Shown in pieces: positions 5,406 through 64,000 of a stretch of DNA of 64,000 nucleotides. The DNA lies in NCBI GenBank assembly GCA_902464275.1, contig CABQIK010000007.1, forward strand, positions 8,613 to 72,612, read 5' to 3'. Under the pieces are notes generated by a model. That model made no database searches, was not told where the DNA came from, and was given only the letters and a program-made list of their open reading frames with translations. This stretch comes from an uncultured Alphaproteobacteria bacterium. GTDB lineage: Bacteria > Pseudomonadota > Alphaproteobacteria > RF32 > CAG-239. Each line of letters opens with the position of its first letter. Position 1 is the first letter of the stretch. Made by a program: the position numbers and the translations under genes.

Positions 5406-6332
5406 TTGACCAATAAAAATTTTGACACTTGTGTATCTTTTTACACCAACAACGGCGCTTTTATGGGGCGGGTTGTTCGCTTGAACGATGTTTTGCAAAC
5501 CATTTTGGGCAAGCATAATTACCCGCAAGATGTTTCGTCCGCTTTGGCCGAAACTACCGCTTTGTCGGTTTTGCTTGCCGACGCCTTAAAATATAACGGA
5601 TTGTTTACCTTGCAAATTCAGGGCAACGGACCGGTTTCGGTTTTGGTTGCCGATGTTACCTCTGAAGGCAAAATCCGCGCTTGCGCCAAATTTGACGAGC
5701 AAAAATTGGCTGAAGCCAAAAAACTCCGCAAAACCGGCGATATAATTGAAGAGCTTCCGCACCTTGTCGGCGGCGGTTATATGGCGTTTACCATTGACCA
5801 AGGACCTGAAACCGAAACTTATCAGGGCGTGGTTGACCTGCAAGGAAAAACCTTAACCGAACTCGCTTTGCGCTATTTTAAGCAGTCAGAACAAATTGAC
5901 ACTATCTTAAAACTTTTTGTAAAACACCCTGAAGGCGAAAGTCAAAGTTGGCAAGCCGCCGGAATTTTAATGCAAAAAGTTCCGCTTAAAGGCGGCAACG
6001 AGCAAACTCTTGATGAAGAGGCCGTTAAAGAACTTTGGAATGAGGCGGAAGTTTTTGTCGGCAGCTTAACCGATGATGAGATGTTTAACGCCGATTTATC
6101 AACGCCGGAAATTTTACACCGCCTGTTCCACAGCAGCAACCTGCAAATCGGGCGTGAAAAAGCCTATTCTTTCGGGTGCCGCTGTAGCCGCGAAAAACTC
6201 TTGAGCACATTAAGCGCCTTTAAGCCGGAAGAAATTAACGCCATGGCTGAAGATGACGGCAAAATCACCGCGACCTGCAGTTTTTGCTCCGAAAAATACG
6301 TTTTTGATAAAAACGAATTGCTAAAACACTAA
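5406..6332 (+). CDS. hslO: Hsp33 redox-regulated chaperone
   Basis: C-terminal zinc centre CRCSREK...CSFCSEKY (CxC...CxxC) and Hsp33 length. Confidence 0.85.
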   Translation: MTNKNFDTCVSFYTNNGAFMGRVVRLNDVLQTILGKHNYPQDVSSALAETTALSVLLADALKYNGLFTLQIQGNGPVSVLVADVTSEGKIRACAKFDEQKLAEAKKLRKTGDIIEELPHLVGGGYMAFTIDQGPETETYQGVVDLQGKTLTELALRYFKQSEQIDTILKLFVKHPEGESQSWQAAGILMQKVPLKGGNEQTLDEEAVKELWNEAEVFVGSLTDDEMFNADLSTPEILHRLFHSSNLQIGREKAYSFGCRCSREKLLSTLSAFKPEEINAMAEDDGKITATCSFCSEKYVFDKNELLKH

Positions 6333-7039: not shown

Positions 7040-7064
7040 AGCTCCCGTTCGGGAGCTTTTTTAA
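7040..7064 (+). terminator. rho-independent terminator
   Basis: GCTCCCG-TTC-GGGAGC followed by TTTTTT. Confidence 0.6.
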
Positions 7065-7112
7065 TGCCCGCTTTAACCCTAATTTAAACGATTCGGTGTT
7101 TTAATTTGTTTT

Positions 7113-8393
7113 ATGATAAGCAAATTAAAAAACATATATAAAATTTACTTCAACCGCAAAATGGCGGCTTTAACCGCTTTGGGTTTTGCCAGCGGTTTTC
7201 CGTTTTTGTTAGTGTTCAGCACTTTAAGTTTATGGCTTAAAGAAGCCGGTTGGACTTATGCCGCTATCGGCGCTTTTTCGCTTGTAAAAATTCCGTATGC
7301 TTTTAAGTGGGTGTGGTCGCCTTTGCTTGATAATATCAAACTTCCGTTGCTTTGGCGCTTAGGGCGCCGCCGCAGTTGGGGGCTTTTAATGCAAATTTTG
7401 CTGTTTTTGGCTGTTATGGCCATGAGCGCCGTCAATCCCGAATATCAGCACCGCTTAATTTGGATTTGCGCGGCGGCGGTTTGCTTTTCATCAGCCTCGC
7501 TTGATATTATTCTTGACGCCTATCGGGTTGAAACATTTAAAGACACTCCCAACGAACAAGCATCAGGAGCGGCGGTGTTTGTTTTGGGTTATCGCATCGG
7601 CTTAATTTTTTCCGGCGCCGGCGCATTGTGGCTAGCCACCGTAATGAGTTGGAACAATGTGTATATGATTATGGCATCAGGTTCAATTATCGGCTTTATC
7701 ACCTTATTGCTGATTAAAGAACCGAACACCGGATTTAAATATGCCGCCGCTTCACACAAGCCGATTCGCACTCGCGTAACCGAATTTTTAACCCATTCGG
7801 TTAAAGCTCCGCTCCAAGATTTTACCAAACACAGCCATTGGCCGCTGATTATCTTTTTGATTTTTATTTACCGCATGAGCGACGCATATTTTGCCCCGAT
7901 GTCATTTCCGTTTTATGACGATATGGGATTCAGCAAAGCCGAAATTGCCTATGTTATCAAAATTTACGGCATGGCGGCAACCATTGCCGGCGGACTTTTC
8001 GGCGGAGTGCTGCTCAAAAAAATCGGACTGTTTAAGGGCTTATATTTGTGCGGATTTATTCAGGGCTTAACCACCCTGTTGTTCAGCTTGCAAGCTCTTG
8101 CCGGTCATAATGTGCCACTCTTGACCGTGGTCATCACGCTTGAAAACTTTTCATCGGGTATGGCAACCACCGCTTTTGTTGCCTACATCTCGTCATTATG
8201 CAACGTTCTGTACACCGCCACCCAATACGCGCTACTTTCATCGCTGATGAGTCTGGCGCGCGATGTGTTCTCAGCCACCAGCGGACTGTTGGCGCAACTG
8301 GTTTCATGGCCGATATTTTTTATAGTTGCCGCCGCATTCAGCATTCCCGGAATTATTGCGGTAAAATACCTTTCCAAACACCAAACAAGTTAA
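7113..8393 (+). CDS. ampG: AmpG family muropeptide MFS transporter
   Basis: 12-TM MFS protein. N-terminal LGFASGFPFLL...LVKIPYAFKWVWSPLLD matches the AmpG/PAT signature. Confidence 0.8.
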   Translation: MISKLKNIYKIYFNRKMAALTALGFASGFPFLLVFSTLSLWLKEAGWTYAAIGAFSLVKIPYAFKWVWSPLLDNIKLPLLWRLGRRRSWGLLMQILLFLAVMAMSAVNPEYQHRLIWICAAAVCFSSASLDIILDAYRVETFKDTPNEQASGAAVFVLGYRIGLIFSGAGALWLATVMSWNNVYMIMASGSIIGFITLLLIKEPNTGFKYAAASHKPIRTRVTEFLTHSVKAPLQDFTKHSHWPLIIFLIFIYRMSDAYFAPMSFPFYDDMGFSKAEIAYVIKIYGMAATIAGGLFGGVLLKKIGLFKGLYLCGFIQGLTTLLFSLQALAGHNVPLLTVVITLENFSSGMATTAFVAYISSLCNVLYTATQYALLSSLMSLARDVFSATSGLLAQLVSWPIFFIVAAAFSIPGIIAVKYLSKHQTS

Positions 8394-37470: not shown

Positions 37471-38244
37471 ATGTACCGATTAATTATCGCCGCCTGCTTA
37501 TTTGCCTTAACCTTTCCGGCTTTTGCCGCCGAACAGACTGCTCCCTCGGCTCCTGAACCGGCAACGGCAACCGTGGTGCTTAAACCGACTGAAAGCGACA
37601 TGGAAGAGCAAATGAAAAACGCCACTGTCGCTTCATTGGAAGAATTACAAAAACAAAATTTTGACTTTAACGCTCAAGATTCCAACGGCAACACTCCCTT
37701 ATTTTATTTATTAACCCGCAACCCGAACCGCGAAGTTGCTCAAAAAGCCATTGACCTGGGCGCTGATGTAAACACTCCCAACAAAGCCGGCATTTTGCCG
37801 ATAAATATTTCCACCTCTAAAGCTAATGAACTGCAACTGCAGATTATTATGATGCAGGCCATGGGGCTTGATTTAAATGACCCTGAAGTGCAGGAAAAAG
37901 TGCAGGAAAAACTTTTTCATGAAATGGAACGCATGTTCCAAATGGCGCAAATGCTGATTGCAAACGGGGCTGATGTTAACCGGGAAGGAGCTCTCGGAAC
38001 TCCGCTTATGAACGCCGCCACCAATGCCTGGAATTATGAAATTGCCAAAATGCTGATTGAAAAAGGCGCTGATGTAAACGCTCGGGACAAAAACGGCAAA
38101 ACCGCGCTGTTTTACGCTGCCGCCGGCAACAGCGATGACATTGCCATGTTGTTGTTAAAATCAGGTGCCGATGCCGACATAAAAGATAACAACGGCAAAA
38201 CTTATCTTGAAATTGAACGCTTACACATTGAAAGCCCGTTATAA
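37471..38244 (+). CDS. secreted ankyrin-repeat protein
   Basis: Signal peptide MYRLIIAACLFALTFPAFAAEQ. At least 3-4 ANK repeats (NGNTPLFYLL..., GTPLMNAATNAWNYEIAKMLIEKGADVNARDKNGKTALFYAAAGNSDDIAMLLLKSGAD). Confidence 0.8.
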   Translation: MYRLIIAACLFALTFPAFAAEQTAPSAPEPATATVVLKPTESDMEEQMKNATVASLEELQKQNFDFNAQDSNGNTPLFYLLTRNPNREVAQKAIDLGADVNTPNKAGILPINISTSKANELQLQIIMMQAMGLDLNDPEVQEKVQEKLFHEMERMFQMAQMLIANGADVNREGALGTPLMNAATNAWNYEIAKMLIEKGADVNARDKNGKTALFYAAAGNSDDIAMLLLKSGADADIKDNNGKTYLEIERLHIESPL

Positions 38245-38383
38245 ATCAACATATTTATGCCGTTGCGGTTAATATCCGTAAAATTTAATAGATTCTTTAG
38301 AAAAGAGAGCATACAATAATGCCATAAATGCCCATACCCCGATTCTTGGTATGGGTATAATAAACTTTTATAAGGATTGTATT

Positions 38384-40819
38384 ATGCTAAAAATAAATCA
38401 GTTATTTAAAGCAGCTTCCGCCGCTTTATTTTCAATGTTCTTTATTCTTAACAATGCACACGCCTCTGAAATTGATTTACACATTCCGTCATTGAATGTT
38501 GCGTTTAACATTTTCGGAACAACCGTCACCGGCTCAAACATTTTGCTTGCCGGTATGGTCGTTTGCATTTTAGGAATGCTTTTTGGTCTGTATGAATTTA
38601 TCAGAATCAAAAATCTTCCGGCACATCAGGCTATGCTTAATGTTGCTGAAACCATTTACACCACCTGCAAAACTTATATGAAGCAGCAGGCCAAGCTTTT
38701 GTTGTTGCTTGAGTGCTTTATTGCCGTTTGCATTTTTTATTACTTCTTTTACCTTAACTCCGTTCCGTTAATGAAAGTATTAAATATTTTGTTATGGTCG
38801 GTTTTGGGTATTATGGGTTCATTCTCGGTTGCGTGGTTCGGTATGCGTATCAACACTTATGCCAACGCCCGCACCTCATTTGCCTCATTAAAGGGCAAAG
38901 CTTTTCCGGTTATGAACCTGCCGTTGCATTCCGGTATGTCAATCGGCGTTTTGCTGATTTGCGTTGAACTTATCATGATGATTTTCATTCTGTTGTTTGT
39001 TCCGCGTGATAATGCCGGCGCTTGCTTTATCGGCTTTGCCATCGGTGAATCTTTAGGCGCTTCCGCCTTGCGTATTTGCGGCGGTATTTTTACCAAAATT
39101 GCCGACATCGGCGCCGATTTAATGAAAATTATTTTCAAAATTGATGAAGACGATGCCCGCAACCCCGGCGTAATTGCAGACTGCACCGGCGACAATGCCG
39201 GCGATTCGGTCGGCCCTACCGCTGATGGTTTTGAAACTTACGGCGTTACCGGCGTGGCTTTAATCAGCTTTATCGTATTGGGCGCCGGCATGATGTATAC
39301 CGCTGACGGCTCATTAGCTCCGATGGCCAACGGTATTGACATTCAGGCGCGTTTAATTACTTGGATTTTCACCATGCGCGTATTGATGATTTTGACCTCA
39401 ATTTTATCATACTCGCTCAACAACGTGCTTTCTAAGGCTCTGTTCGGCAACAAAGACAGCTTTAACTTTGAAACCCCGCTCACCAGCCTTGTATGGCTCA
39501 CCTCCATCATTTCCATTATGGTAACTTTCGGCGTGTCTTATGTTATGATTGACAGCGCCGTATTCGGACCTGATTTGTGGTGGAAACTTTCGGTTATTAT
39601 CAGCTGCGGAACTTTAGCCGCCGCCTTAATTCCGGAATTTACCAAAATATTCACCTCGTCAAAGTCTAAACACGTTCAAGAAGTTGTAAACGCCAGCCGT
39701 GAAGCCGGCGCTTCCTTAAACATTATCTCGGGTATTGTTTCAGGCAACTTCTCAGGCTTTTGGCAAGGTATTGTAATGGTAGGCTTAATGGTAATTGCCT
39801 TTTTAACCGCCCGTACCGGACTTGACCCGTACATGGTTTACCCGACCGTATTTGCGTTTGGCTTGGTTGCTTTCGGTATGCTCGGTATGGGACCTGTTAC
39901 CATTGCCGTTGACTCTTACGGACCGGTTACCGATAACGCTCAATCCGTATTTGAACTTTCCCAAATTGAGCAGATTAAAGGCATTAAAAAAGAAATCAAA
40001 TCCGACTACGGTTTTGAACCTAACTTTGAAGTCGGCAAACACTTGTTGGAAGAAAACGATTCTGCCGGCAACACCTTTAAAGCCACTGCCAAACCGGTAT
40101 TAATCGGCACGGCTGTAATCGGCGCAACCACCATGATTTTCTCAATCATCTTGCTGTTAAACCTTTCATTAAATCTTTTAGACCCGTACGTCTTATTTGG
40201 TTTAATTTTAGGCGGCGCCGTAATTTACTGGTTCTCGGGCGCGTCTATGCAGGCGGTTTCAGCCGGCGCATATAAAGCCGTAAACTACATTAAAAAGCAC
40301 ATTCACCTTGACGGTAAAAGTGCCGCTTCTATTGAAGATTCCAAAAATGTGGTTCGCATTTGCACTATTTATGCGCAAAAAGGCATGCTTAACATCTTTA
40401 TCGTAATCTTCTCATTTACGATTGCGTTTGCCTGCTTTAACGCCAACCTGTTTGCAAGTTACTTAATTTCAATCGCCATTTTCGGATTGTTCCAAGCTTT
40501 GTATATGGCCAACGCCGGCGGCGCTTGGGATAACGCCAAAAAGGTTGTTGAGGTAGACTTGCAGGAAAAAGGCACCCCGTTGCACGATGCCGCTGTGGTT
40601 GGCGATACCGTCGGCGACCCGTACAAAGACACCTCATCGGTTGCCTTAAACCCGATTATTAAATTTACCACCTTGTTCGGATTGTTGGCGGTTGAAATGG
40701 CTGCCAAAGCTCCGGCTTGCGTATCCTTCGGGCTCGGAATTTTCTTCTTCCTGCTTGGTTTGGTATTTGTATGGCGTTCATTTTACGCTATGCGTATTGA
40801 ACCAACCGTAAAAGATTAA
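38384..40819 (+). CDS. hppA: membrane-bound proton/sodium-translocating pyrophosphatase
   Basis: GDTVGDPYKDTSSVALNP and other H+-PPase motifs. About 16 TMs. Start placed at the MLKINQ ATG with RBS AAGGA, which is 33 nt downstream of the track start. Confidence 0.88.
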   Translation: MLKINQLFKAASAALFSMFFILNNAHASEIDLHIPSLNVAFNIFGTTVTGSNILLAGMVVCILGMLFGLYEFIRIKNLPAHQAMLNVAETIYTTCKTYMKQQAKLLLLLECFIAVCIFYYFFYLNSVPLMKVLNILLWSVLGIMGSFSVAWFGMRINTYANARTSFASLKGKAFPVMNLPLHSGMSIGVLLICVELIMMIFILLFVPRDNAGACFIGFAIGESLGASALRICGGIFTKIADIGADLMKIIFKIDEDDARNPGVIADCTGDNAGDSVGPTADGFETYGVTGVALISFIVLGAGMMYTADGSLAPMANGIDIQARLITWIFTMRVLMILTSILSYSLNNVLSKALFGNKDSFNFETPLTSLVWLTSIISIMVTFGVSYVMIDSAVFGPDLWWKLSVIISCGTLAAALIPEFTKIFTSSKSKHVQEVVNASREAGASLNIISGIVSGNFSGFWQGIVMVGLMVIAFLTARTGLDPYMVYPTVFAFGLVAFGMLGMGPVTIAVDSYGPVTDNAQSVFELSQIEQIKGIKKEIKSDYGFEPNFEVGKHLLEENDSAGNTFKATAKPVLIGTAVIGATTMIFSIILLLNLSLNLLDPYVLFGLILGGAVIYWFSGASMQAVSAGAYKAVNYIKKHIHLDGKSAASIEDSKNVVRICTIYAQKGMLNIFIVIFSFTIAFACFNANLFASYLISIAIFGLFQALYMANAGGAWDNAKKVVEVDLQEKGTPLHDAAVVGDTVGDPYKDTSSVALNPIIKFTTLFGLLAVEMAAKAPACVSFGLGIFFFLLGLVFVWRSFYAMRIEPTVKD

Positions 40820-40835
40820 GATAAATTCTTAAACC

Positions 40836-40866
40836 ACCCCCGCTTTTTAATTAAAGCGGGGGTTTT
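40836..40866 (+). terminator. rho-independent terminator after hppA
   Basis: CCCCCGCTTT-ttaatt-AAAGCGGGGG followed by TTTTC. Confidence 0.7.
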
Positions 40867-40894
40867 CTTTATTTATTATAAATAAAATTCCTAA

Positions 40895-40960
40895 AGCTAT
40901 TCGGTAATTTTTCTTGCCTTTTCGGTAATTATTCGGTAATATTTAGGTAAATTTATTTAG
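40895..40960 (+). repeat. direct repeats (TTCGGTAAT x3 plus TTAGGTAAA) upstream of the fic gene
   Basis: attcggtaat...ttcggtaattattcggtaatatttaggtaaattt. The last three copies are 12-13 bp apart, immediately 5' of the Fic start. Confidence 0.6.
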
Positions 40961-40972
40961 AAAGGACAAAAT

Positions 40973-42025
40973 ATGCCTAATATGAGTGATATTATCATTA
41001 CACCTGATATACTGCGAAGCATATCTGAAATAGATACATTTAAAGGATCTTGGAACAGTGGCGGTATTAAAATTGCGCCTGAACAATTAAAAACGATGAA
41101 AAGAATTGCCACGATTGAATCCATTGGTTCCTCAAATCGTATTGAAGGCAATAAATTAAATGATATTGATGTTGAAACCATATTTAACAACATCAATAAA
41201 AAATCATTTCAAACTCGTGATGAACAAGAAGTTGCCGGTTATGCTGATTTATTAGCTACAATATTTGACAATTATCAAAACATTCCATTATCGGAAAATT
41301 ATATCAGACAGCTTCATAAAATTTTATTAAACTATTCTGATAAAGATGAACGCCACAGAGGAGAATATAAAAAAGATTCAAACAGAGTTGCCGCATTTGA
41401 TGCAAATGGTCATGAAATCGGTACTATTTTTGAAACGGCCACTCCTTTTGACACACCACGCTTGATGCAAGAATTGATTGATTGGACCAACAGAAATTTC
41501 AATGATGGATATTTTCATCCGATAATAACTATTGGCGTATTTATTGTCCGCTTCTTGGCAATACACCCGTTTACTGACGGCAACGGTCGTATGTCAAGAG
41601 CATTAACAACAATGTTATTACTGCAAAACGGCTACAATTACATGCCTTACGCTTCTATGGAATCTGTTATTGAAGCAAGCAAAGATTTATATTATAGGGC
41701 ATTAAGAGCAACCCAAAAAACTATTTGGAATGATAAAGTAAATTACGAGCCTTGGTTAACTTTCTTTGTAACATCATTGCAAAAACAAAAACGCCATTTG
41801 GAATATAAAATAAAAAAATCATCTGATACAATAAGATACAATAAAACAGAACAAAGCATAATAAATTTATTTGATATAAAATCAAATTGGTCTGTTTTGG
41901 AAATATCTGAAACATTAGGTAAAAACAACGAGACAGTTAAAAAGAATGTTCAGAATCTTGTAAAAAAAGACATTTTAGAAAAACAAGGGACAACAAAAGG
42001 AACCTATTATATTTTGAAAAAATAA
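40973..42025 (+). CDS. Fic family protein (AMPylator-like) with C-terminal wHTH-like region
   Basis: Canonical Fic motif HPFTDGNGRMSR. AT-rich codon usage relative to neighbouring core genes. Confidence 0.85.
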   Translation: MPNMSDIIITPDILRSISEIDTFKGSWNSGGIKIAPEQLKTMKRIATIESIGSSNRIEGNKLNDIDVETIFNNINKKSFQTRDEQEVAGYADLLATIFDNYQNIPLSENYIRQLHKILLNYSDKDERHRGEYKKDSNRVAAFDANGHEIGTIFETATPFDTPRLMQELIDWTNRNFNDGYFHPIITIGVFIVRFLAIHPFTDGNGRMSRALTTMLLLQNGYNYMPYASMESVIEASKDLYYRALRATQKTIWNDKVNYEPWLTFFVTSLQKQKRHLEYKIKKSSDTIRYNKTEQSIINLFDIKSNWSVLEISETLGKNNETVKKNVQNLVKKDILEKQGTTKGTYYILKK

Positions 42026-42090
42026 AAGATAATACTCCGTTTTTTAAACGGATATAGGCCTATAACCCCTAAGATACAGTTCAAAGACAG

Positions 42091-42192
42091 GGTGGTTTAT
42101 ACAACTTATGCACAGCTTTGGACTCGTAAATATTGCAAAAAAAAAACGCGAGCTAAAATCTTCTTAAATTTAACAATTTGAGGAGATTTTTA
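42091..42192 (+). promoter_or_regulatory. orphan copy of the conserved pilin-gene upstream cassette (promoter/5' leader)
   Basis: About 100 nt, near-identical to the sequence 5' of pilin paralogs 2 and 3 (...ggactcgtaaatattgcaaaaaaaaaacgcgagctaaaatcttcttaaatttaacaatttgaggagatttt). Here it is followed by an unrelated short ORF. Confidence 0.6.
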
Positions 42193-42330
42193 ATGTTTAT
42201 CCAAAATATACTAGCTAAGCTTGCGGATGGTGAGGCAGATACGACGGGATTTTGGAGCGACTTGTACACAAAAAGGTACACGAGCGAGAAAATCCCTAGC
42301 AGCTGCCCGCTAGACGCAAGCGTAAAATGA
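42193..42330 (+). other. short ORF (45 aa) or small RNA body driven by the orphan cassette, ending in the 46-nt repeat element and a terminator
   Basis: ATG is placed exactly where the pilin ATG sits in the other cassette copies. It is followed by the 46-nt element (42329..42374) and the hairpin ATACTCAATC-ataa-GATTGAGTAT (42388..42411). Confidence 0.25.
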
Positions 42331-42418
42331 GCTTACAAGCAAGACCGAACCCCGCAGGGGTGAGATTCCCCTCTCGGTTAAAAAAAATACTCAATCATAA
42401 GATTGAGTATTTTTATAA

Positions 42419-42917
42419 TTGGTGGAGCTGAGGGGGCTTGCAGAGTCACAAAAATGTCCGGTGGACATTTTTTGCCGGCAAGCATCAGCTGCTGTTAGCG
42501 AGCGATGAGCCGACAGGCGATAAGAGCGAACGTTACAGCTGCTTGACCGCAGCGCAGTTAGCGACTGCCCTTTGGGCAGAGCTTACAAGCAAGACCGAAC
42601 CCCGCAGGGGTGAGATTCCCCTCTTCTAAAGACACAAAAGCACTTAAGCAAAAGCCTAAGTGCTTAAAAATTGGTGGAGCTGAGGGGGCTTGCAGAGTCA
42701 CAAAAATGTCCGGTGGACATTTTTTGCCGGCAAGCATCAGCTGCTGTTAGCGAGCGATGAGCCGACAGGCGATAAGAGCGAACGTTACAGCTGCTTGACC
42801 GCAGCGCAGTTAGCGACTGCCCTTTGGGCAGAGCTTACAAGCAAGACCGAACCCCTAGGGTTAGATTCCCCTCTTAAAAATAAAAGCACTTAAGCAAAAG
42901 CCTAAGTGCTTAAAAAT
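42419..42917 (+). repeat. two tandem direct repeats of about 250 bp, each starting with a copy of the 3' 17 nt of tRNA-Ala
   Basis: Units 42419..42670 and 42671..42916 are over 95% identical. Each begins TTGGTGGAGCTGAGGGG, which matches the reverse complement of the tRNA-Ala 3' end at 42918. Each contains hairpins (AAAAATGTCC-ggt-GGACATTTTT and CTGCCC-ttt-GGGCAG) and the 46-nt element GAGCTTACAAGCAAGACCGAACCCC(GCAGGGGTGAG)ATTCCCCTCT. Each ends with the hairpin AAGCACTTAAG-caaaag-CCTAAGTGCTT. Confidence 0.85.
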
Positions 42918-42993
42918 TGGTGGAGCTGAGGGGAATCGAACCCCTGACCTCCTCAATGCCATTGAGGCGCTCTCCCAACTGAGCTACAACCCC
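42918..42993 (-). tRNA. tRNA-Ala (anticodon GGC)
   Basis: Minus-strand sequence GGGGTTGTAGCTCAGTTGGGAGAGCGCCTCAATGGCATTGAGGAGGTCAGGGGTTCGATTCCCCTCAGCTCCACCA. G3:U70 Ala identity pair, anticodon loop AUGGCAU, encoded CCA. A hairpin plus T-run terminator lies downstream on the minus strand. Confidence 0.9.
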
Positions 42994-43115
42994 ATCAGTG
43001 ATGGTATGCGGGCATATTACAATAAAAATTTTTAATGTCAAACACTTTTTGCTAAACTCTTAAAAATAAAAGCGCCCGCAAAATAACCGGACGCTTTAAT
43101 TTGATGGCTTTAAGC

Positions 43116-44072
43116 TTATTCTTCCGATCCGCCTTCGGCATCAGCCGATGCCATAATATCCGGCAATGTTCCGATAGCTTTTTTACGTTTCAACTTGTTT
43201 ACAAACTTAATTGAACGTTGAGCATCCCACTTCTTTTTACCTTCTTCATGCTGAAAGATTTGTTTGTAAACTTCAATCGCCTGATCAAATTCAGACAACT
43301 TGGTTAAGCATGAAGCCAAACCATCATACATTTTGTGATGATAACGACCGTTTACAAGCTGTTGAGCTTTTTTGTAACATTTAAGAGCATCTTTAAACTT
43401 AAACATTTTTTGATAAACAAAGCCGATGCTAATCCAAGCCTGAATTTCGCTGCTGTTAATGTTTAAAATTTTGGTAAAACATTTTAAGGCCGAATCATTA
43501 TCGCCCATCAGCTGATAGGTAACGCCGATACCGTTCCATGCTTTAACGTTGGTTTTATCCGATGACAACACCTTTTTGAAAAACGCGATTGAGCGGTCAT
43601 ACTGTTTAAGCTTTTGGAGTGTAACCGCAATGCTGAGCAAGGTTTGCGGGTGTTTGTTGTCAATCTTCATGGCTTGTTCCAAAACATCCAAAGCTTCTTT
43701 GAACAAAAACATGTGTTGCAAAGCAATCGCTTTACCGTTTAAGGCCTCAAGCGAAGTTTGATCAATGGCAAAAGCCTCGTCAAAGCAGGCAATCGCCTCT
43801 TTGTAAAGCCCGCGCATTGAAAGGGTAACCCCTTTATTGTTAAGCACTTCAACTGATTTCGGATTAAGCGCAAGCGCTTTATCAAAACATTCAACCGCGT
43901 CAGTATAGCGGCTCATTTTTTGAAAAGCAAAACCTTTAGAGTTCATAGCTTTCCATGAATCCGGCTGTTCGGTTAAAACTTCATCAAATTGTGCAACAGC
44001 CTCTTTATACATACCGCTGTCTAATAATTCCTGCCCTCTTTTATAGGCGTTGTTGTCGTTCATTTTTACCAT
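43116..44072 (-). CDS. tetratricopeptide repeat protein
   Basis: Multiple 34-aa TPR units (A..F..AL..P.....N.G pattern) across 318 aa. Confidence 0.7.
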   Translation of the reverse strand: MVKMNDNNAYKRGQELLDSGMYKEAVAQFDEVLTEQPDSWKAMNSKGFAFQKMSRYTDAVECFDKALALNPKSVEVLNNKGVTLSMRGLYKEAIACFDEAFAIDQTSLEALNGKAIALQHMFLFKEALDVLEQAMKIDNKHPQTLLSIAVTLQKLKQYDRSIAFFKKVLSSDKTNVKAWNGIGVTYQLMGDNDSALKCFTKILNINSSEIQAWISIGFVYQKMFKFKDALKCYKKAQQLVNGRYHHKMYDGLASCLTKLSEFDQAIEVYKQIFQHEEGKKKWDAQRSIKFVNKLKRKKAIGTLPDIMASADAEGGSEE

Positions 44073-44160
44073 TTTCTTCTCTTTTCCAAAGTTACAAAAT
44101 AATTGGTAAAAAGTACAATATCATTATAAATCTTTTATGTCAAGTTTTGAATCGCATCGC

Positions 44161-45105
44161 CTAAACGGGTTTTATTTGCTTATATATAGGCAAATCAGGC
44201 CTTACCTCGCGATAACGACAATTAATTTTTGCACAAAAATTTTTCATTTTTTGGCGTTTTTCGGCAAAATATTGACGATAATCTTCTGTAAAATCTTTAC
44301 CGGCAACCACCAAAAGCTGCTTTTGATTTTGATATTGCGCCAAATATTCGCCGACCGGCGGGGCTTTAGCCTCAAGCTCATCAAACACATTTATCAAATA
44401 AAGTTCATGATTGCGGGCAAAACCTGAAAGCACCGCCGCCGATTCTGCCTCAGTATCGGTAAACGAGCCGATAACAAACACAATCGCCCGATGTTTGGCT
44501 TTTTGCCGCAACAGTTTTAATGATTTAACCGCGCTTTCCGATTCGCTTGTCCGATACAAACTTTCAGCGGCGATTTTTTCAATCTGCTTAAAAACCGCAA
44601 ACAAATTTTCAACCGTGCGCTTAGGCTCAAAAATAAGCGTTTTACTGCCGTCAAAGACCGCCATTCCAACACGGTCTTTATTTTCAAGCGCGTACCAACC
44701 GATTAACGCCGCAACTTTGGCGGCCGTAACCGATTTAAGCTCGCGCTTGGTGCCAAAACGCATTTTAGCCGACAAATCAAGCCAAATATAAACCTCGCGG
44801 TCTTTTTCTTCATTATAAAGTTTGGTAAAAGGCTGATTTTTGCGCGCCGTAACCCGCCAATCAATATCGCGCACATCATCACCGTAGTTATAAGCGCGCA
44901 CCTCTTCAAACTCAATGCCTCTGCCCTTAAAAGCCGAACGAGAATCCCCTGCCTGCAATGAGGTTTGATTAAGCTTAAAATCGCGCAAATAAGGGACATA
45001 GCGCCGCATCAGAGCCAACTGCTTAAAATCAGCCGCCAACGCCGGATTAATTTTAGGCGTTTGTTCTGACTTCAACAATTCCGAGAGACTCTTGAATTTA
45101 AACAT
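44161..45105 (-). CDS. DUF58 domain protein (MoxR-associated, vWA-like)
   Basis: FKGRGIEFEEVRAYNYGDDVRDIDWRVTAR motif typical of DUF58. Immediately downstream of moxR. Confidence 0.8.
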   Translation of the reverse strand: MFKFKSLSELLKSEQTPKINPALAADFKQLALMRRYVPYLRDFKLNQTSLQAGDSRSAFKGRGIEFEEVRAYNYGDDVRDIDWRVTARKNQPFTKLYNEEKDREVYIWLDLSAKMRFGTKRELKSVTAAKVAALIGWYALENKDRVGMAVFDGSKTLIFEPKRTVENLFAVFKQIEKIAAESLYRTSESESAVKSLKLLRQKAKHRAIVFVIGSFTDTEAESAAVLSGFARNHELYLINVFDELEAKAPPVGEYLAQYQNQKQLLVVAGKDFTEDYRQYFAEKRQKMKNFCAKINCRYREVRPDLPIYKQIKPV

Positions 45106-48652: not shown

Positions 48653-48750
48653 GCATACAACTTATACACAGCACGGACTCGTAAATATTGCAAAAAAAAA
48701 ACGCGGAGTAAAATCTTCTTAAATTTAACAATTTGAGGAGATTTTAGCTC
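48651..48750 (+). promoter_or_regulatory. conserved pilin upstream cassette, copy B
   Basis: Shares about 95% identity with 42091..42192 and 60511..60622. Contains TTGCAA...TAAAAT promoter-like hexamers and an inverted repeat GAGCTAAAATCTTC / GAGGAGATTTTAGCTC that spans the RBS. Confidence 0.6.
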
Positions 48751-49356
48751 ATGAATACACAATCAGGTCGGTCTATGGTGGAAATGCTCGGCGTTCTTGC
48801 TATTATCGGCGTGCTCAGCGTCGGGGCTATCAGCGGTTACAGCAAAGCAATGATGAAGTACCGGCTTAACAAATATTCTGAACAAATTAACACTGTTATC
48901 AATGCCGTTGCTCGTAATGCCCAGAGCTTTAACAATATGGAAAACGGAACTGACTTAACTGAAACTTTTATCAAAATGGGAGAAATCCCGACTGATATGA
49001 CAAAACCGAATAACTTCACCGGTATATATGATGTTTTTGGGCAAAAATGGCGAATTTTTATCGGTTCAACCGCCACAACAATCTTTTTATCAATGACCGG
49101 CTCATCATTAAAAACTTTATCTGCGGATAATTTAGCCATTTGCCAAACCACATTTACCGTAGCTAAAGAAAATGCCGATAGTATCAGATATATAGAAACC
49201 ATCAGCAATGCCGGAACGGAAAATAAAATTGATAAGGCTTGGTTTGGCGACGCCTATTGCCACCAATCAAATTGCCTGCGAAATTTACTATGGACGGTAT
49301 TTACAATGCCTGCACTGCTCACAAAGGCGTCAATGAACCTATATATTTTCAAATAA
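48751..49356 (+). CDS. type IV pilin-like protein, paralog 2
   Basis: MNTQSG|RSMVEMLGVLAIIGVLSVGAISGYSKAM class III signal and N-terminal helix. C-terminal disulfide loop GDAYCHQSNC. Confidence 0.72.
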   Translation: MNTQSGRSMVEMLGVLAIIGVLSVGAISGYSKAMMKYRLNKYSEQINTVINAVARNAQSFNNMENGTDLTETFIKMGEIPTDMTKPNNFTGIYDVFGQKWRIFIGSTATTIFLSMTGSSLKTLSADNLAICQTTFTVAKENADSIRYIETISNAGTENKIDKAWFGDAYCHQSNCLRNLLWTVFTMPALLTKASMNLYIFK

Positions 49357-60510: not shown

Positions 60511-60622
60511 GAAGACGGGGTGGTCTTTTGCAACTTATGCACACCCCGGACTCGTAAATATTGCAAAAAAAAAACGCGAGCTAAAATCTTCTCAAAACCA
60601 ACTTTTGAGGAGATTTTAGCTC
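60511..60622 (+). promoter_or_regulatory. conserved pilin upstream cassette, copy C
   Basis: Same element as copies A and B. The inverted-repeat arms are conserved while the loop sequence differs (caaaaccaactttt versus taaatttaacaattt). Confidence 0.6.
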
Positions 60623-63518: not shown

Positions 63519-64000
63519 TTATTCAGTTAAGATTACATTATTAATAAAATTTCGCACGGTTTCTCTGTCTACGTGTAATTTTTTGGCAATAGCTGTTTTG
63601 CTTTCTCCGTTAGCTAACAACTTTTGTATAATAGATTCCTTGCCTGAAAGTTTTAAATATGAGCTTTTTGTGCCATAAGGTCTACCAAGAATTTTCCCGG
63701 AAGCACGTCTCGCGGCTAAAGCTTCTTTTGTGCGCTGACTTATTAAATTTCGCTCTAATTCAGCTGTTAGCCCAAATGCAAAAGCTAATATTTTCCCCTG
63801 AATTCCTGCATCTAAGCGATAATTGTCTTTTATGGTCCAAATGTTAGCACCGATGTTCATACAATGGTTTAATATTCCCATTATTTGTAATAAATCTCTT
63901 CCCAATCTAGACAATTCACTGGTAATAAGCATATCTCCTTTTTTAATCCTTTTTATAAGTTTGCCTAATTTCCTTTTTTGTAAATCTTGGCGAGAGCTGA
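63519..64000 (-). mobile_element. serine recombinase (resolvase/invertase family), N-terminus beyond window end
   Basis: The frame stays open upstream of the track start and reads ...KKGDMLITSELSRLGRD (resolvase catalytic-domain motif). It also has ELERNLISQRTKEALAARRASGKILGRP and a C-terminal HTH KTAIAKKLHVDRETVRNF. Confidence 0.8.

Follow-up and report, generated by a model that had tools for sequence, protein, structure and literature searches.

What is a Fic gene of low GC content, preceded by short direct repeats, doing between hppA and a tRNA-Ala gene in an uncultured alphaproteobacterium? The question was raised by an earlier note on a stretch of 64,000 nucleotides (nt) from contig CABQIK010000007.1 (positions 8,613 to 72,612 of the forward strand), referred to here as the window, whose own coordinates are used unless a locus is named. 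The region from the end of hppA to the tRNA is three unrelated things side by side, each of an ordinary, known kind: a Fic module, the stump of a pilin gene and a repeat array linked to the tRNA. The Fic protein is, by its sequence, a class II AMP-transferase of the SoFic/CccR type with predicted activity. The four in-phase repeats in front of its gene are most likely the operator predicted for the protein's own winged helix, as sequence comparison and analogy with characterized relatives indicate. The explanation developed below for the region as a whole is considered probable.

The Fic gene has a GC content of 31.3%, whereas the window as a whole and the DNA on either side of the gene have about 43%, a difference of 12 points. 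The lower GC content relative to hppA, a catalytic motif of the HPFTDGNGR type, the hppA terminator on the left and the tRNA-Ala array on the right had all been described in the earlier note and were borne out. The Fic and hppA proteins are found as exact matches in many contigs from human-gut metagenomes, always in the same arrangement.

The Fic protein and its module

The Fic gene and its immediate borders are as follows.

40836..40873, plus strand: intrinsic terminator of hppA, the left limit of the patch (11-pair stem with seven GC pairs, then a T run)
40973..42025, plus strand: Fic open reading frame (ORF), predicted class II with a C-terminal winged helix, 350 amino acids (aa) (ORF list, Pfam, PADLOC, AlphaFold2, Foldseek)
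42036..42052, no strand assigned: small hairpin TCCGTTT/AAACGGA, located in the 47 nt that separate the Fic module from the pilin cassette and scored as a terminator on the minus strand only

The identity, motifs and fold of the protein are established by several lines of evidence. The protein matches Pfam PF02661 (Fic/DOC) with 66 bits, the cut-off being 24. The catalytic motif HPFTDGNGRMSR (residues 198-209, nt 41564-41599) fits the HxFx(D/E)GNGRxxR motif of Fic/Fido AMP-transferases. The earlier note had proposed a search for the inhibitory motif (S/T)xxxE(G/N), and this motif is found inside the Fic protein as S54-N-R-I-E58-G59 (SNRIEG, nt 41132-41149), N-terminal to the Fic core. Both SNRIEG and HPFTDGNGRMSR are invariant across 30 homologs. 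SNRIEG aligns with SSNRLEG of Protein Data Bank (PDB) entry 8uqu and sits at the end of helix 36-57 in an AlphaFold2 model (pLDDT 87, pTM 0.77). The same model ends in a helix-helix-helix-hairpin winged helix at residues ~291-348 (nt 41843-42016), composed of helices 291-299, 308-315 and 319-331 and strands 335-338 and 345-348. Foldseek returned full-length matches to Fic-winged-helix structures (4rgl, 8cil (CbFic2), 3eqx (SoFic) and 7xux), and winged-helix models of CasR/Csa3 match residues 278-350. Among solved structures, the closest in sequence is 8uqu from Bordetella (E=2.6e-35), for which no describing paper was found in the literature.

The location of the inhibitory motif within the protein places the enzyme in class II, which does not require a separate antitoxin, and settles the antitoxin question at this locus. 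In class I Fic pairs such as VbhT-VbhA, the helix carrying the inhibitory (S/T)xxxE(G/N) glutamate is located on a separate small antitoxin. Here, that helix is built into the enzyme instead. The Fic classes are summarized in PMC3667792.

The closest comparisons are with SoFic and CccR. SoFic of Shewanella oneidensis, represented in PADLOC as the single-gene defense family PDLC03963, has the same order of inhibitory helix, Fic domain and winged helix. The PADLOC SoFic profile matches residues 36-348 on profile positions 47-351 of 361 (E=2.6e-47), and a direct phmmer comparison with SoFic gives E~8e-10 over 127 residues. CccR of Yersinia pseudotuberculosis, also class II, has SARIEG in place of SNRIEG and likewise combines an N-terminal motif, a Fic core and a C-terminal DNA-binding domain (PMC9755527). 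The structure 7xux, which is probably that of CccR, is a weak sequence match to the Fic protein (E=2.3e-9). CccR is an effector of a type VI secretion system (PMC9755527), whereas no link to a secretion system was seen at the Fic locus. Likewise, no evidence was found for the role as a host-directed effector that the earlier note had raised.

The Fic gene probably belongs to a self-contained, mobile accessory module that was acquired by this species and is fixed there. The module occupies 40899-42030, and its limits are established by DNA homology to three homologs in unrelated contexts, which extends from 40899/40900 to 42018-42030 and so spans the first repeat through the stop codon without passing beyond either. 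Homologs 80-89% identical to the Fic protein occupy quite different genomic contexts. In locus L091, which L099 resembles, the gene lies between serine recombinases and adjoins a helicase gene and HsdM; in L092 it lies near HipAB; and in L094 it adjoins a reverse transcriptase gene and a type IIG restriction-modification gene. More distant relatives adjoin an Eco57I-type methylase and a HATPase protein, a helicase or a second Fic gene, and an integrase is also found among the neighbors of homologs. Such neighbors, with restriction-modification, reverse transcriptase, HipA and helicase genes among them, lend indirect support to a putative role in protection against phage. Relatives about 50% identical are carried by 95 plasmids from many phyla.

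The gene is absent from this locus in relatives. By hppA, the closest relatives with names are uncultured Alphaproteobacteria of the gut, with 'Azospirillum sp. CAG:260', 'Azospirillum sp. 47_25' and Candidatus Scatocola (82%) among the matches listed. In species with 90-92% identical hppA, the place downstream of hppA is taken by other genes and not by Fic. In Candidatus Scatocola faecipullorum (82% in hppA; the nearest among the matches listed, which are mostly from distant phyla), no synteny and no Fic gene downstream of hppA were found. The view of the earlier note that the patch is accessory and acquired is upheld by the atypical GC content, by these relatives without Fic and by the close homologs in unrelated contexts. 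At the same time, the composition of the gene is not core-like and its upstream repeats are conserved, which the earlier note had made the points on which its view would stand or fall.

Some further details of the homologous loci were recorded. An AAA_11/AAA_12 (Upf1-like) helicase gene lies directly 3' of the Fic homolog in L091 (7091-9634) and in L120 (5979-8496), where the Fic proteins are ~39-88% identical to the query, and the two genes may be a recurrent pair. On a Chroococcidiopsis plasmid (L134, 3738-6017), the Fic homolog adjoins genes for an ImmA/IrrE peptidase, a helix-turn-helix (HTH) regulator, a multiubiquitin protein, an E2/UBC protein and a Mov34/MPN-family protein, a defense-type neighborhood. 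A Fic gene that appeared split in L127 is only apparently so, the break being a scaffold gap of Ns.

The upstream repeats

The elements upstream of the Fic gene, all on the plus strand, are as follows.

40900-40908, plus strand: R1, TTCGGTAAT
40914..40942, plus strand: predicted sigma-70-like promoter TTGCCT-17 nt-TAATAT, with R2 and R3 overlapping it and R1 and R4 on either side
40921-40929, plus strand: R2, TTCGGTAAT
40932-40940, plus strand: R3, TTCGGTAAT
40943-40951, plus strand: R4, TTAGGTAAA

The four 9-bp direct repeats reported in the earlier note are real, with spacings of 21, 11 and 11 bp, so that the last three are not about 12 bp apart as had been stated. The exact 9-mer TTCGGTAAT occurs four times in the window, compared to 1.0 expected, and three of the four copies lie within 41 bp. 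Tandem Repeats Finder describes the array as 3.4 copies with an 11-bp period.

The repeats travel with the gene. All Fic homologs of at least 80% identity keep the same arrangement, namely R1, TTGnnT, R2, R3 overlapping TAATAT, and R4. The repeats are kept with the Fic gene in six other contexts, with four or six copies (six in two loci) at 11-bp spacing. Repeat sequence and 11-bp phase are retained at 74-79% overall DNA identity. In more distant homologs the arrays are of different sequence. The group of 57-63% identity has three repeats of TTAGGTCAT type at 10-11 bp, located 3' of TTGACA-17-TATTAT. Homologs on plasmids of Burkholderia, Agrobacterium and Chroococcidiopsis have four to five copies of TGGGTGTAA, TGGATGGAA and ATGGATATA, respectively, spaced 10-12 bp apart and extending up to the start codon. 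The group of 38-45% identity has mostly two tandem copies of AATCTTATAT, which are non-significant in a crude repeat test. The motif changes with the protein while the layout stays constant, which is the pattern expected of a cognate operator. The suggestion of the earlier note that the repeats are operator-like sites is therefore strengthened. Within this Fic subfamily, each gene brings along an in-phase array of direct repeats whose sequence follows that of the protein.

Characterized relatives provide the analogy for binding. CccR is a repressor of its own promoter, where its C-terminal HTH recognizes two inverted repeats near the -35 and -10 elements (PMC9755527). SoFic binds within the 100 bp upstream of its own gene, although the motif was not defined there (bioRxiv 10.64898/2026.07.09.737422). 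The operator of CccR lies at the -35 and -10 elements of its own promoter, and here the repeats overlap the predicted promoter. The two arrangements differ in that the CccR operator consists of two inverted 10-bp repeats 26 bp apart, whereas the Fic module has four direct 9-bp repeats in 11-bp phase. The array thus supplies candidate operators for footprinting and points to a mode of binding unlike that of the inverted repeats of CccR. The module serves as a comparative case for the experimental finding that winged-helix Fic enzymes bind their own promoters.

A scheme for the action of the Fic protein can be proposed from these comparisons. E58 in SNRIEG would hold the enzyme inactive. The C-terminal winged helix would bind the four repeats around and over the -35 and -10 elements and repress the gene, and this autorepression would keep a potentially toxic enzyme scarce. 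Once activated, the enzyme would AMPylate a core cellular target and growth would stop, which would follow the logic of a toxin-like or abortive-infection defense gene. AMPylation of a core target and a role in defense are suggested by analogy with SoFic and Sofic. SoFic AMPylates EF-Tu in switch I and thereby blocks translation; it both adds AMP to EF-Tu and removes it, and the authors propose that it is a dual transcriptional and translational regulator (bioRxiv 10.64898/2026.07.09.737422). Sofic has been reported to be an abortive-infection defense toxin (PMC12249575).

However, several observations weigh against this interpretation. The evidence on this protein and this DNA is wholly computational. 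The predicted promoter agrees with the consensus at 8 of 12 positions, which is under the threshold of the promoter scan. Several distant homologs have only two or three repeats, which are non-significant by a generic repeat statistic that is crude for AT-rich DNA. The repeats are direct, whereas those footprinted for CccR are inverted, so that the geometry of binding would have to differ. The score for the NCBIfam SoFic equivalog NF046030 is 59 bits, far below the cut-off of 550, indicating that the Fic protein is a relative of SoFic and not an ortholog, and the target and defense role of SoFic are thus not simply transferable. With respect to mobility, Fic is present in all contigs found for the species (18 of 18 contigs whose hppA is identical), and no empty site was found among the contigs of the species and the hppA relatives. 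Finally, synteny around hppA is broken in relatives generally, which weakens the argument from absence.

The fixation of Fic in all contigs of the species would also be expected if the protein were mainly a housekeeping regulator, vertically inherited and acting both as a transcription factor and as a reversible AMPylase to adjust translation or some other core process, with neither toxicity nor a part in phage defense. The addition and removal of AMP by SoFic and its proposed dual function fit such a role, as does the smooth gradient of homologs from 64 to 91% identity, several of which are labeled as coming from Alphaproteobacteria. This alternative has some probability, though a limited one. 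Close homologs are in mobile or defense-rich contexts with sharp module limits, the GC content is 12 points under that of the flanks, Fic is absent beside hppA in relatives, and homologs are carried by plasmids across phyla. 

It is rather unlikely that the 9-bp repeats are not bound by Fic at all, but arose by slippage in AT-rich DNA, serve a host factor or mark the edge of a mobile cassette as recombination sites. The difference between four and six copies among loci fits slippage, and the edge of the module coincides with R1. In L094, a direct repeat of ~83 bp flanks Fic (5920-6000 and 7060-7145); it covers the first two operator repeats, R1 and R2, and its downstream copy ends in a terminator hairpin. 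Against these readings stand a repeat sequence and phase maintained while the surrounding DNA diverges, a motif that follows the protein within a constant layout, and the binding of related Fic-winged-helix proteins to their own promoters. Recognition of the array by the Fic winged helix is thus the reading preferred here.

The pilin stump and its leader hairpin

The DNA between the Fic module and the array contains the following elements.

42078..42190, plus strand: cassette of pilin promoter, 5' untranslated region (5' UTR) and Shine-Dalgarno sequence, the third copy in the window (repeats within the window, strain comparison)
42193..42330, plus strand: ORF45, remnant of a frameshifted long prepilin leader (homology to long-leader pilins), with a conserved hairpin at 42219-42321 that has no second copy in the window
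42383..42414, plus strand: perfect hairpin followed by a T-rich stretch, the probable terminator of a stump transcript (32-nt inverted repeat, 94%; 14-pair stem in the predicted fold)

The earlier note had recognized here a third copy of a ~100-nt element found upstream of pilin genes and had interpreted it as an orphan promoter fused to an unrelated ORF. The cassette, the 46-nt element and the perfect hairpin of that description stand, but the ORF is not unrelated. Judged by homology, the downstream cassette is the truncated 5' end of a long-leader pilin gene. The segment 42084-42190 matches 48655-48745 (92%) and 60512-60617 (87%), both directly upstream of pilin genes. Moreover, 42099-42321 is 86.7% identical to the promoter and long leader of an intact pilin gene located downstream of uvrD in strain L002. 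The leader of the L002 pilin is 45 aa long and reads MFILKNNPSLRRMSQMRRNFGATCTLKGTRARKSLVGDHYTQAQG/RSMVEML..., the slash marking its end, and the same kind of leader turned up, by protein search, on the pilins of several species.

The homology of the stump to long-leader pilins ends at ~42321-42329, just before the prepilin cleavage site, and 42078-42414 lacks what a type IV pilin gene would have, a prepilin cleavage site with the hydrophobic N-terminal helix behind it (G/RSMVEMLGVLAIIGVL in the paralogs). The leader of pilin P0249 ends with ...CPLDASAG/RSMVEML, and the window reads ...CPLDASVK*, indicating that the stump breaks off at the prepilin cleavage site and continues directly into the 46-nt A element of the array. 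The reading frame of ORF45 is an accident of a 1-nt indel. In strain L003 the corresponding DNA is in frame with the pilin, and in five intact long-leader genes the leader is always in frame with the pilin. The stump would thus be the dead front end of a pilin gene, consisting of promoter, ribosome-binding site and a frameshifted leader with a hairpin, followed by a tRNA-linked repeat and a terminator.

The pilin genes of this group are visibly decaying, so that a dead remnant is the simplest reading of the stump. The pilin gene downstream of uvrD varies among strains of one species, encoding 201, 207 or 246 aa. In the window, a 1-nt deletion near the 3' end of the pilin gene at 48751-49356 replaces the conserved C-terminus that is encoded by L002 (17527-18267). 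Long-leader pilin genes of other species are disrupted by a frameshift in L128 (3001-3725) and by an in-frame stop in L129 (3001-3732). In L003, the stump has at its 5' end the haplotype of the L002 pilin locus, indicating mosaic exchange between copies.

The silent pilS copies of Neisseria lack a promoter and 5' end and retain the variable 3' part. The likeness to the stump lies in a pilin fragment away from expressed loci and in mosaic exchange. The stump is the reverse in content, since it has promoter and leader and lacks the mature pilin. In sister-species loci, BLAST gave no match for the pilin cassette, the leader or the array.

The pilin promoter has a run of ten A residues between TTGCAA and TAAAAT in all three copies (42125-42160, 48680-48715 and 60553-60588). 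In strain L003 the run has nine residues at the Fic locus (11153) and eleven at the uvrD locus (17455). Changes in the length of the run within the promoter spacer could switch pilin expression on and off. A sigma-54 reading of this promoter was considered and rejected by eye, the spacing of GG and GC being wrong.

The leader segment at 42219-42321 forms a conserved four-helix hairpin of ~105 nt. When seven sequences representing at least four species are aligned, pairing is seen in 94% of the cells. Compensatory changes are seen in 10 of 27 pairs, compared to 5.5 +/- 1.3 in shuffled alignments, none of 500 of which reached that number, and 0-2 in slid controls. This covariation points to selection on the structure of the hairpin, as read from the aligned sequences, rather than recent mobility. 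Several G-U pairs favor the plus-strand RNA as the structured molecule, and the putative transcript 42165-42420 has a folding z of -7.7. In pilin genes, the hairpin is 125, 122 or 116 nt long, lengths that differ by multiples of three. Rfam 15 gave no match to 42190-42330 at E<=10 apart from a chance PyrG-leader match ending at 42197. A covariance model found only the sequences from which it was built, with no further copy in the 64-kb window or in ~250 kb of related loci. The hairpin has no similarity beyond chance to segment D of the array. In the leaders of P0245 and P0246, a second leader-like segment is nested in the first, which looks like a duplication or a self-insertion of the hairpin.

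Rickettsia palindromic elements are inserted in frame in genes. The hairpin resembles them as a palindromic segment of ~105 nt located in frame in a coding region, with a nested second copy in one homolog. It differs in that it was found in association with pilins only, with a single copy in the 64-kb window.

The stump may still give rise to a structured RNA of ~250 nt. A stronger proposal is that the stump is a working small RNA (sRNA) gene, in which the pilin promoter drives a stable RNA of that length, composed of the hairpin, the A element and the terminator, and this RNA works in trans, for instance by drawing off, as a decoy, a factor with affinity for the same hairpin in pilin mRNA. 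The stump has kept its promoter, 5' UTR, hairpin and terminator intact, at 98-100% identity among strains, the predicted fold is far more stable than shuffled sequences, and the hairpin is under structural selection in pilin genes, with G-U pairs that favor the plus-strand RNA. However, the strains are too close for their conservation to be informative, the hairpin is kept in frame in pilins with indels in multiples of three and may matter mainly as a coding leader, and the decay of the pilins at 48751, L128 and L129 makes a dead remnant simpler. A working sRNA gene is unlikely on balance, and the stump is better regarded as a relic. There is a slim chance that the hairpin represents an undescribed element of pilins in gut Alphaproteobacteria, kept for its RNA structure and at the same time as an in-frame leader of ~41-54 aa, and that the orphan copy beside Fic, transcribed from a pilin promoter into an RNA of ~250 nt, influences pilin expression in trans, for instance through titration of a factor that recognizes the hairpin. 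The hairpin is a small new lead nonetheless, as a structure supported by covariation that lies in a coding leader and is not in Rfam. Neither the Fic module nor the hairpin changes the understanding of such systems.

The tRNA-Ala array

The right part of the region consists of the following elements.

42329..42933, no strand assigned: tandem array with a 252-bp unit in 2.4 copies (Tandem Repeats Finder, 91% matches)
42918..42993, minus strand: tRNA-Ala (GGC) (ARAGORN)

Each unit of the array is composed of the 46-nt A element, a hairpin like that after the tRNA, 16 nt of the 3' end of tRNA-Ala and a D segment of ~145 nt. The A element is present at 42329, 42579 and 42831. The 16-nt end of the tRNA occurs in three exact copies (42420-42435, 42672-42687 and, in the tRNA itself, 42918), compared to 0.14 expected. 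The array would have arisen by a 252-bp tandem duplication that begins inside the 3' end of tRNA-Ala. Strains L002-L004 have 1.4 copies, one unit fewer, and such differences in the number of units indicate that copy number changes by recombination. In L004, the stump is followed by the other type of hairpin.

The presence of tRNA 3'-end copies in a patch that directly adjoins the tRNA could be taken to mean that Fic arrived on an island integrated at tRNA-Ala, the exact 16-nt copies being att scars. Such an origin is very unlikely. The copies are all on the tRNA side of Fic, with none beyond the gene, and so do not bracket it. Each copy is followed by the same hairpin, A element and D segment, as in a tandem duplication of the region downstream of the tRNA and unlike inserted DNA, and no integrase ORF is present in 38000-45000. 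In addition, neither the 252-bp unit nor the A element has a match in IMG/VR, phage or plasmid sequences.

The remaining proposal, that ORF45 (42193-42330) is a small antitoxin of Fic, had been raised by the earlier note and is hardly credible: ORF45 does resemble in size and position the 47-aa protein AS1, which is encoded just downstream of EcSofic of Escherichia coli, an enzyme of the same architecture, and counteracts its toxicity (PMC12249575), and it is called as a gene in several strains, but its sequence is that of a pilin gene leader, its frame differs from the conserved frame of the long-leader pilins (five loci) and varies by strain (L003 reads the same DNA in another frame, of 39 codons), its translation, read by eye, lacks (S/T)xxxE(G/N), and it is unlinked to Fic elsewhere, where homology among Fic loci stops at the Fic stop codon with nothing 3' of it conserved and no conserved small antitoxin ORF was found flanking Fic, L091, L092 and L094 having no small ORF 3' of the gene.

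A few minor observations concern the array and the right end of the window. The A element holds AGGGGTGAGATTCCCCTC, an inverted near-copy of the T arm of tRNA-Ala (AGGGGTTCGATTCCCCTC), indicating that the 252-bp units are bounded by tRNA-derived pieces in opposite orientation. The possibility of a transfer-messenger RNA (tmRNA) or permuted tmRNA was rejected, since the Rfam match was weak (E=0.045, 23 bits versus a cut-off of 47), ARAGORN reported none, and neither a 5' partner for the acceptor strand nor a plausible tag was seen by eye. An ORF on the minus strand (63519-63932), which lies 20 kb away from the patch near the window's right end, looks by eye like a C-terminal portion of a serine recombinase of the resolvase/invertase kind, with an HTH. 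The 252-bp unit folds well on the minus strand (z=-5.3).

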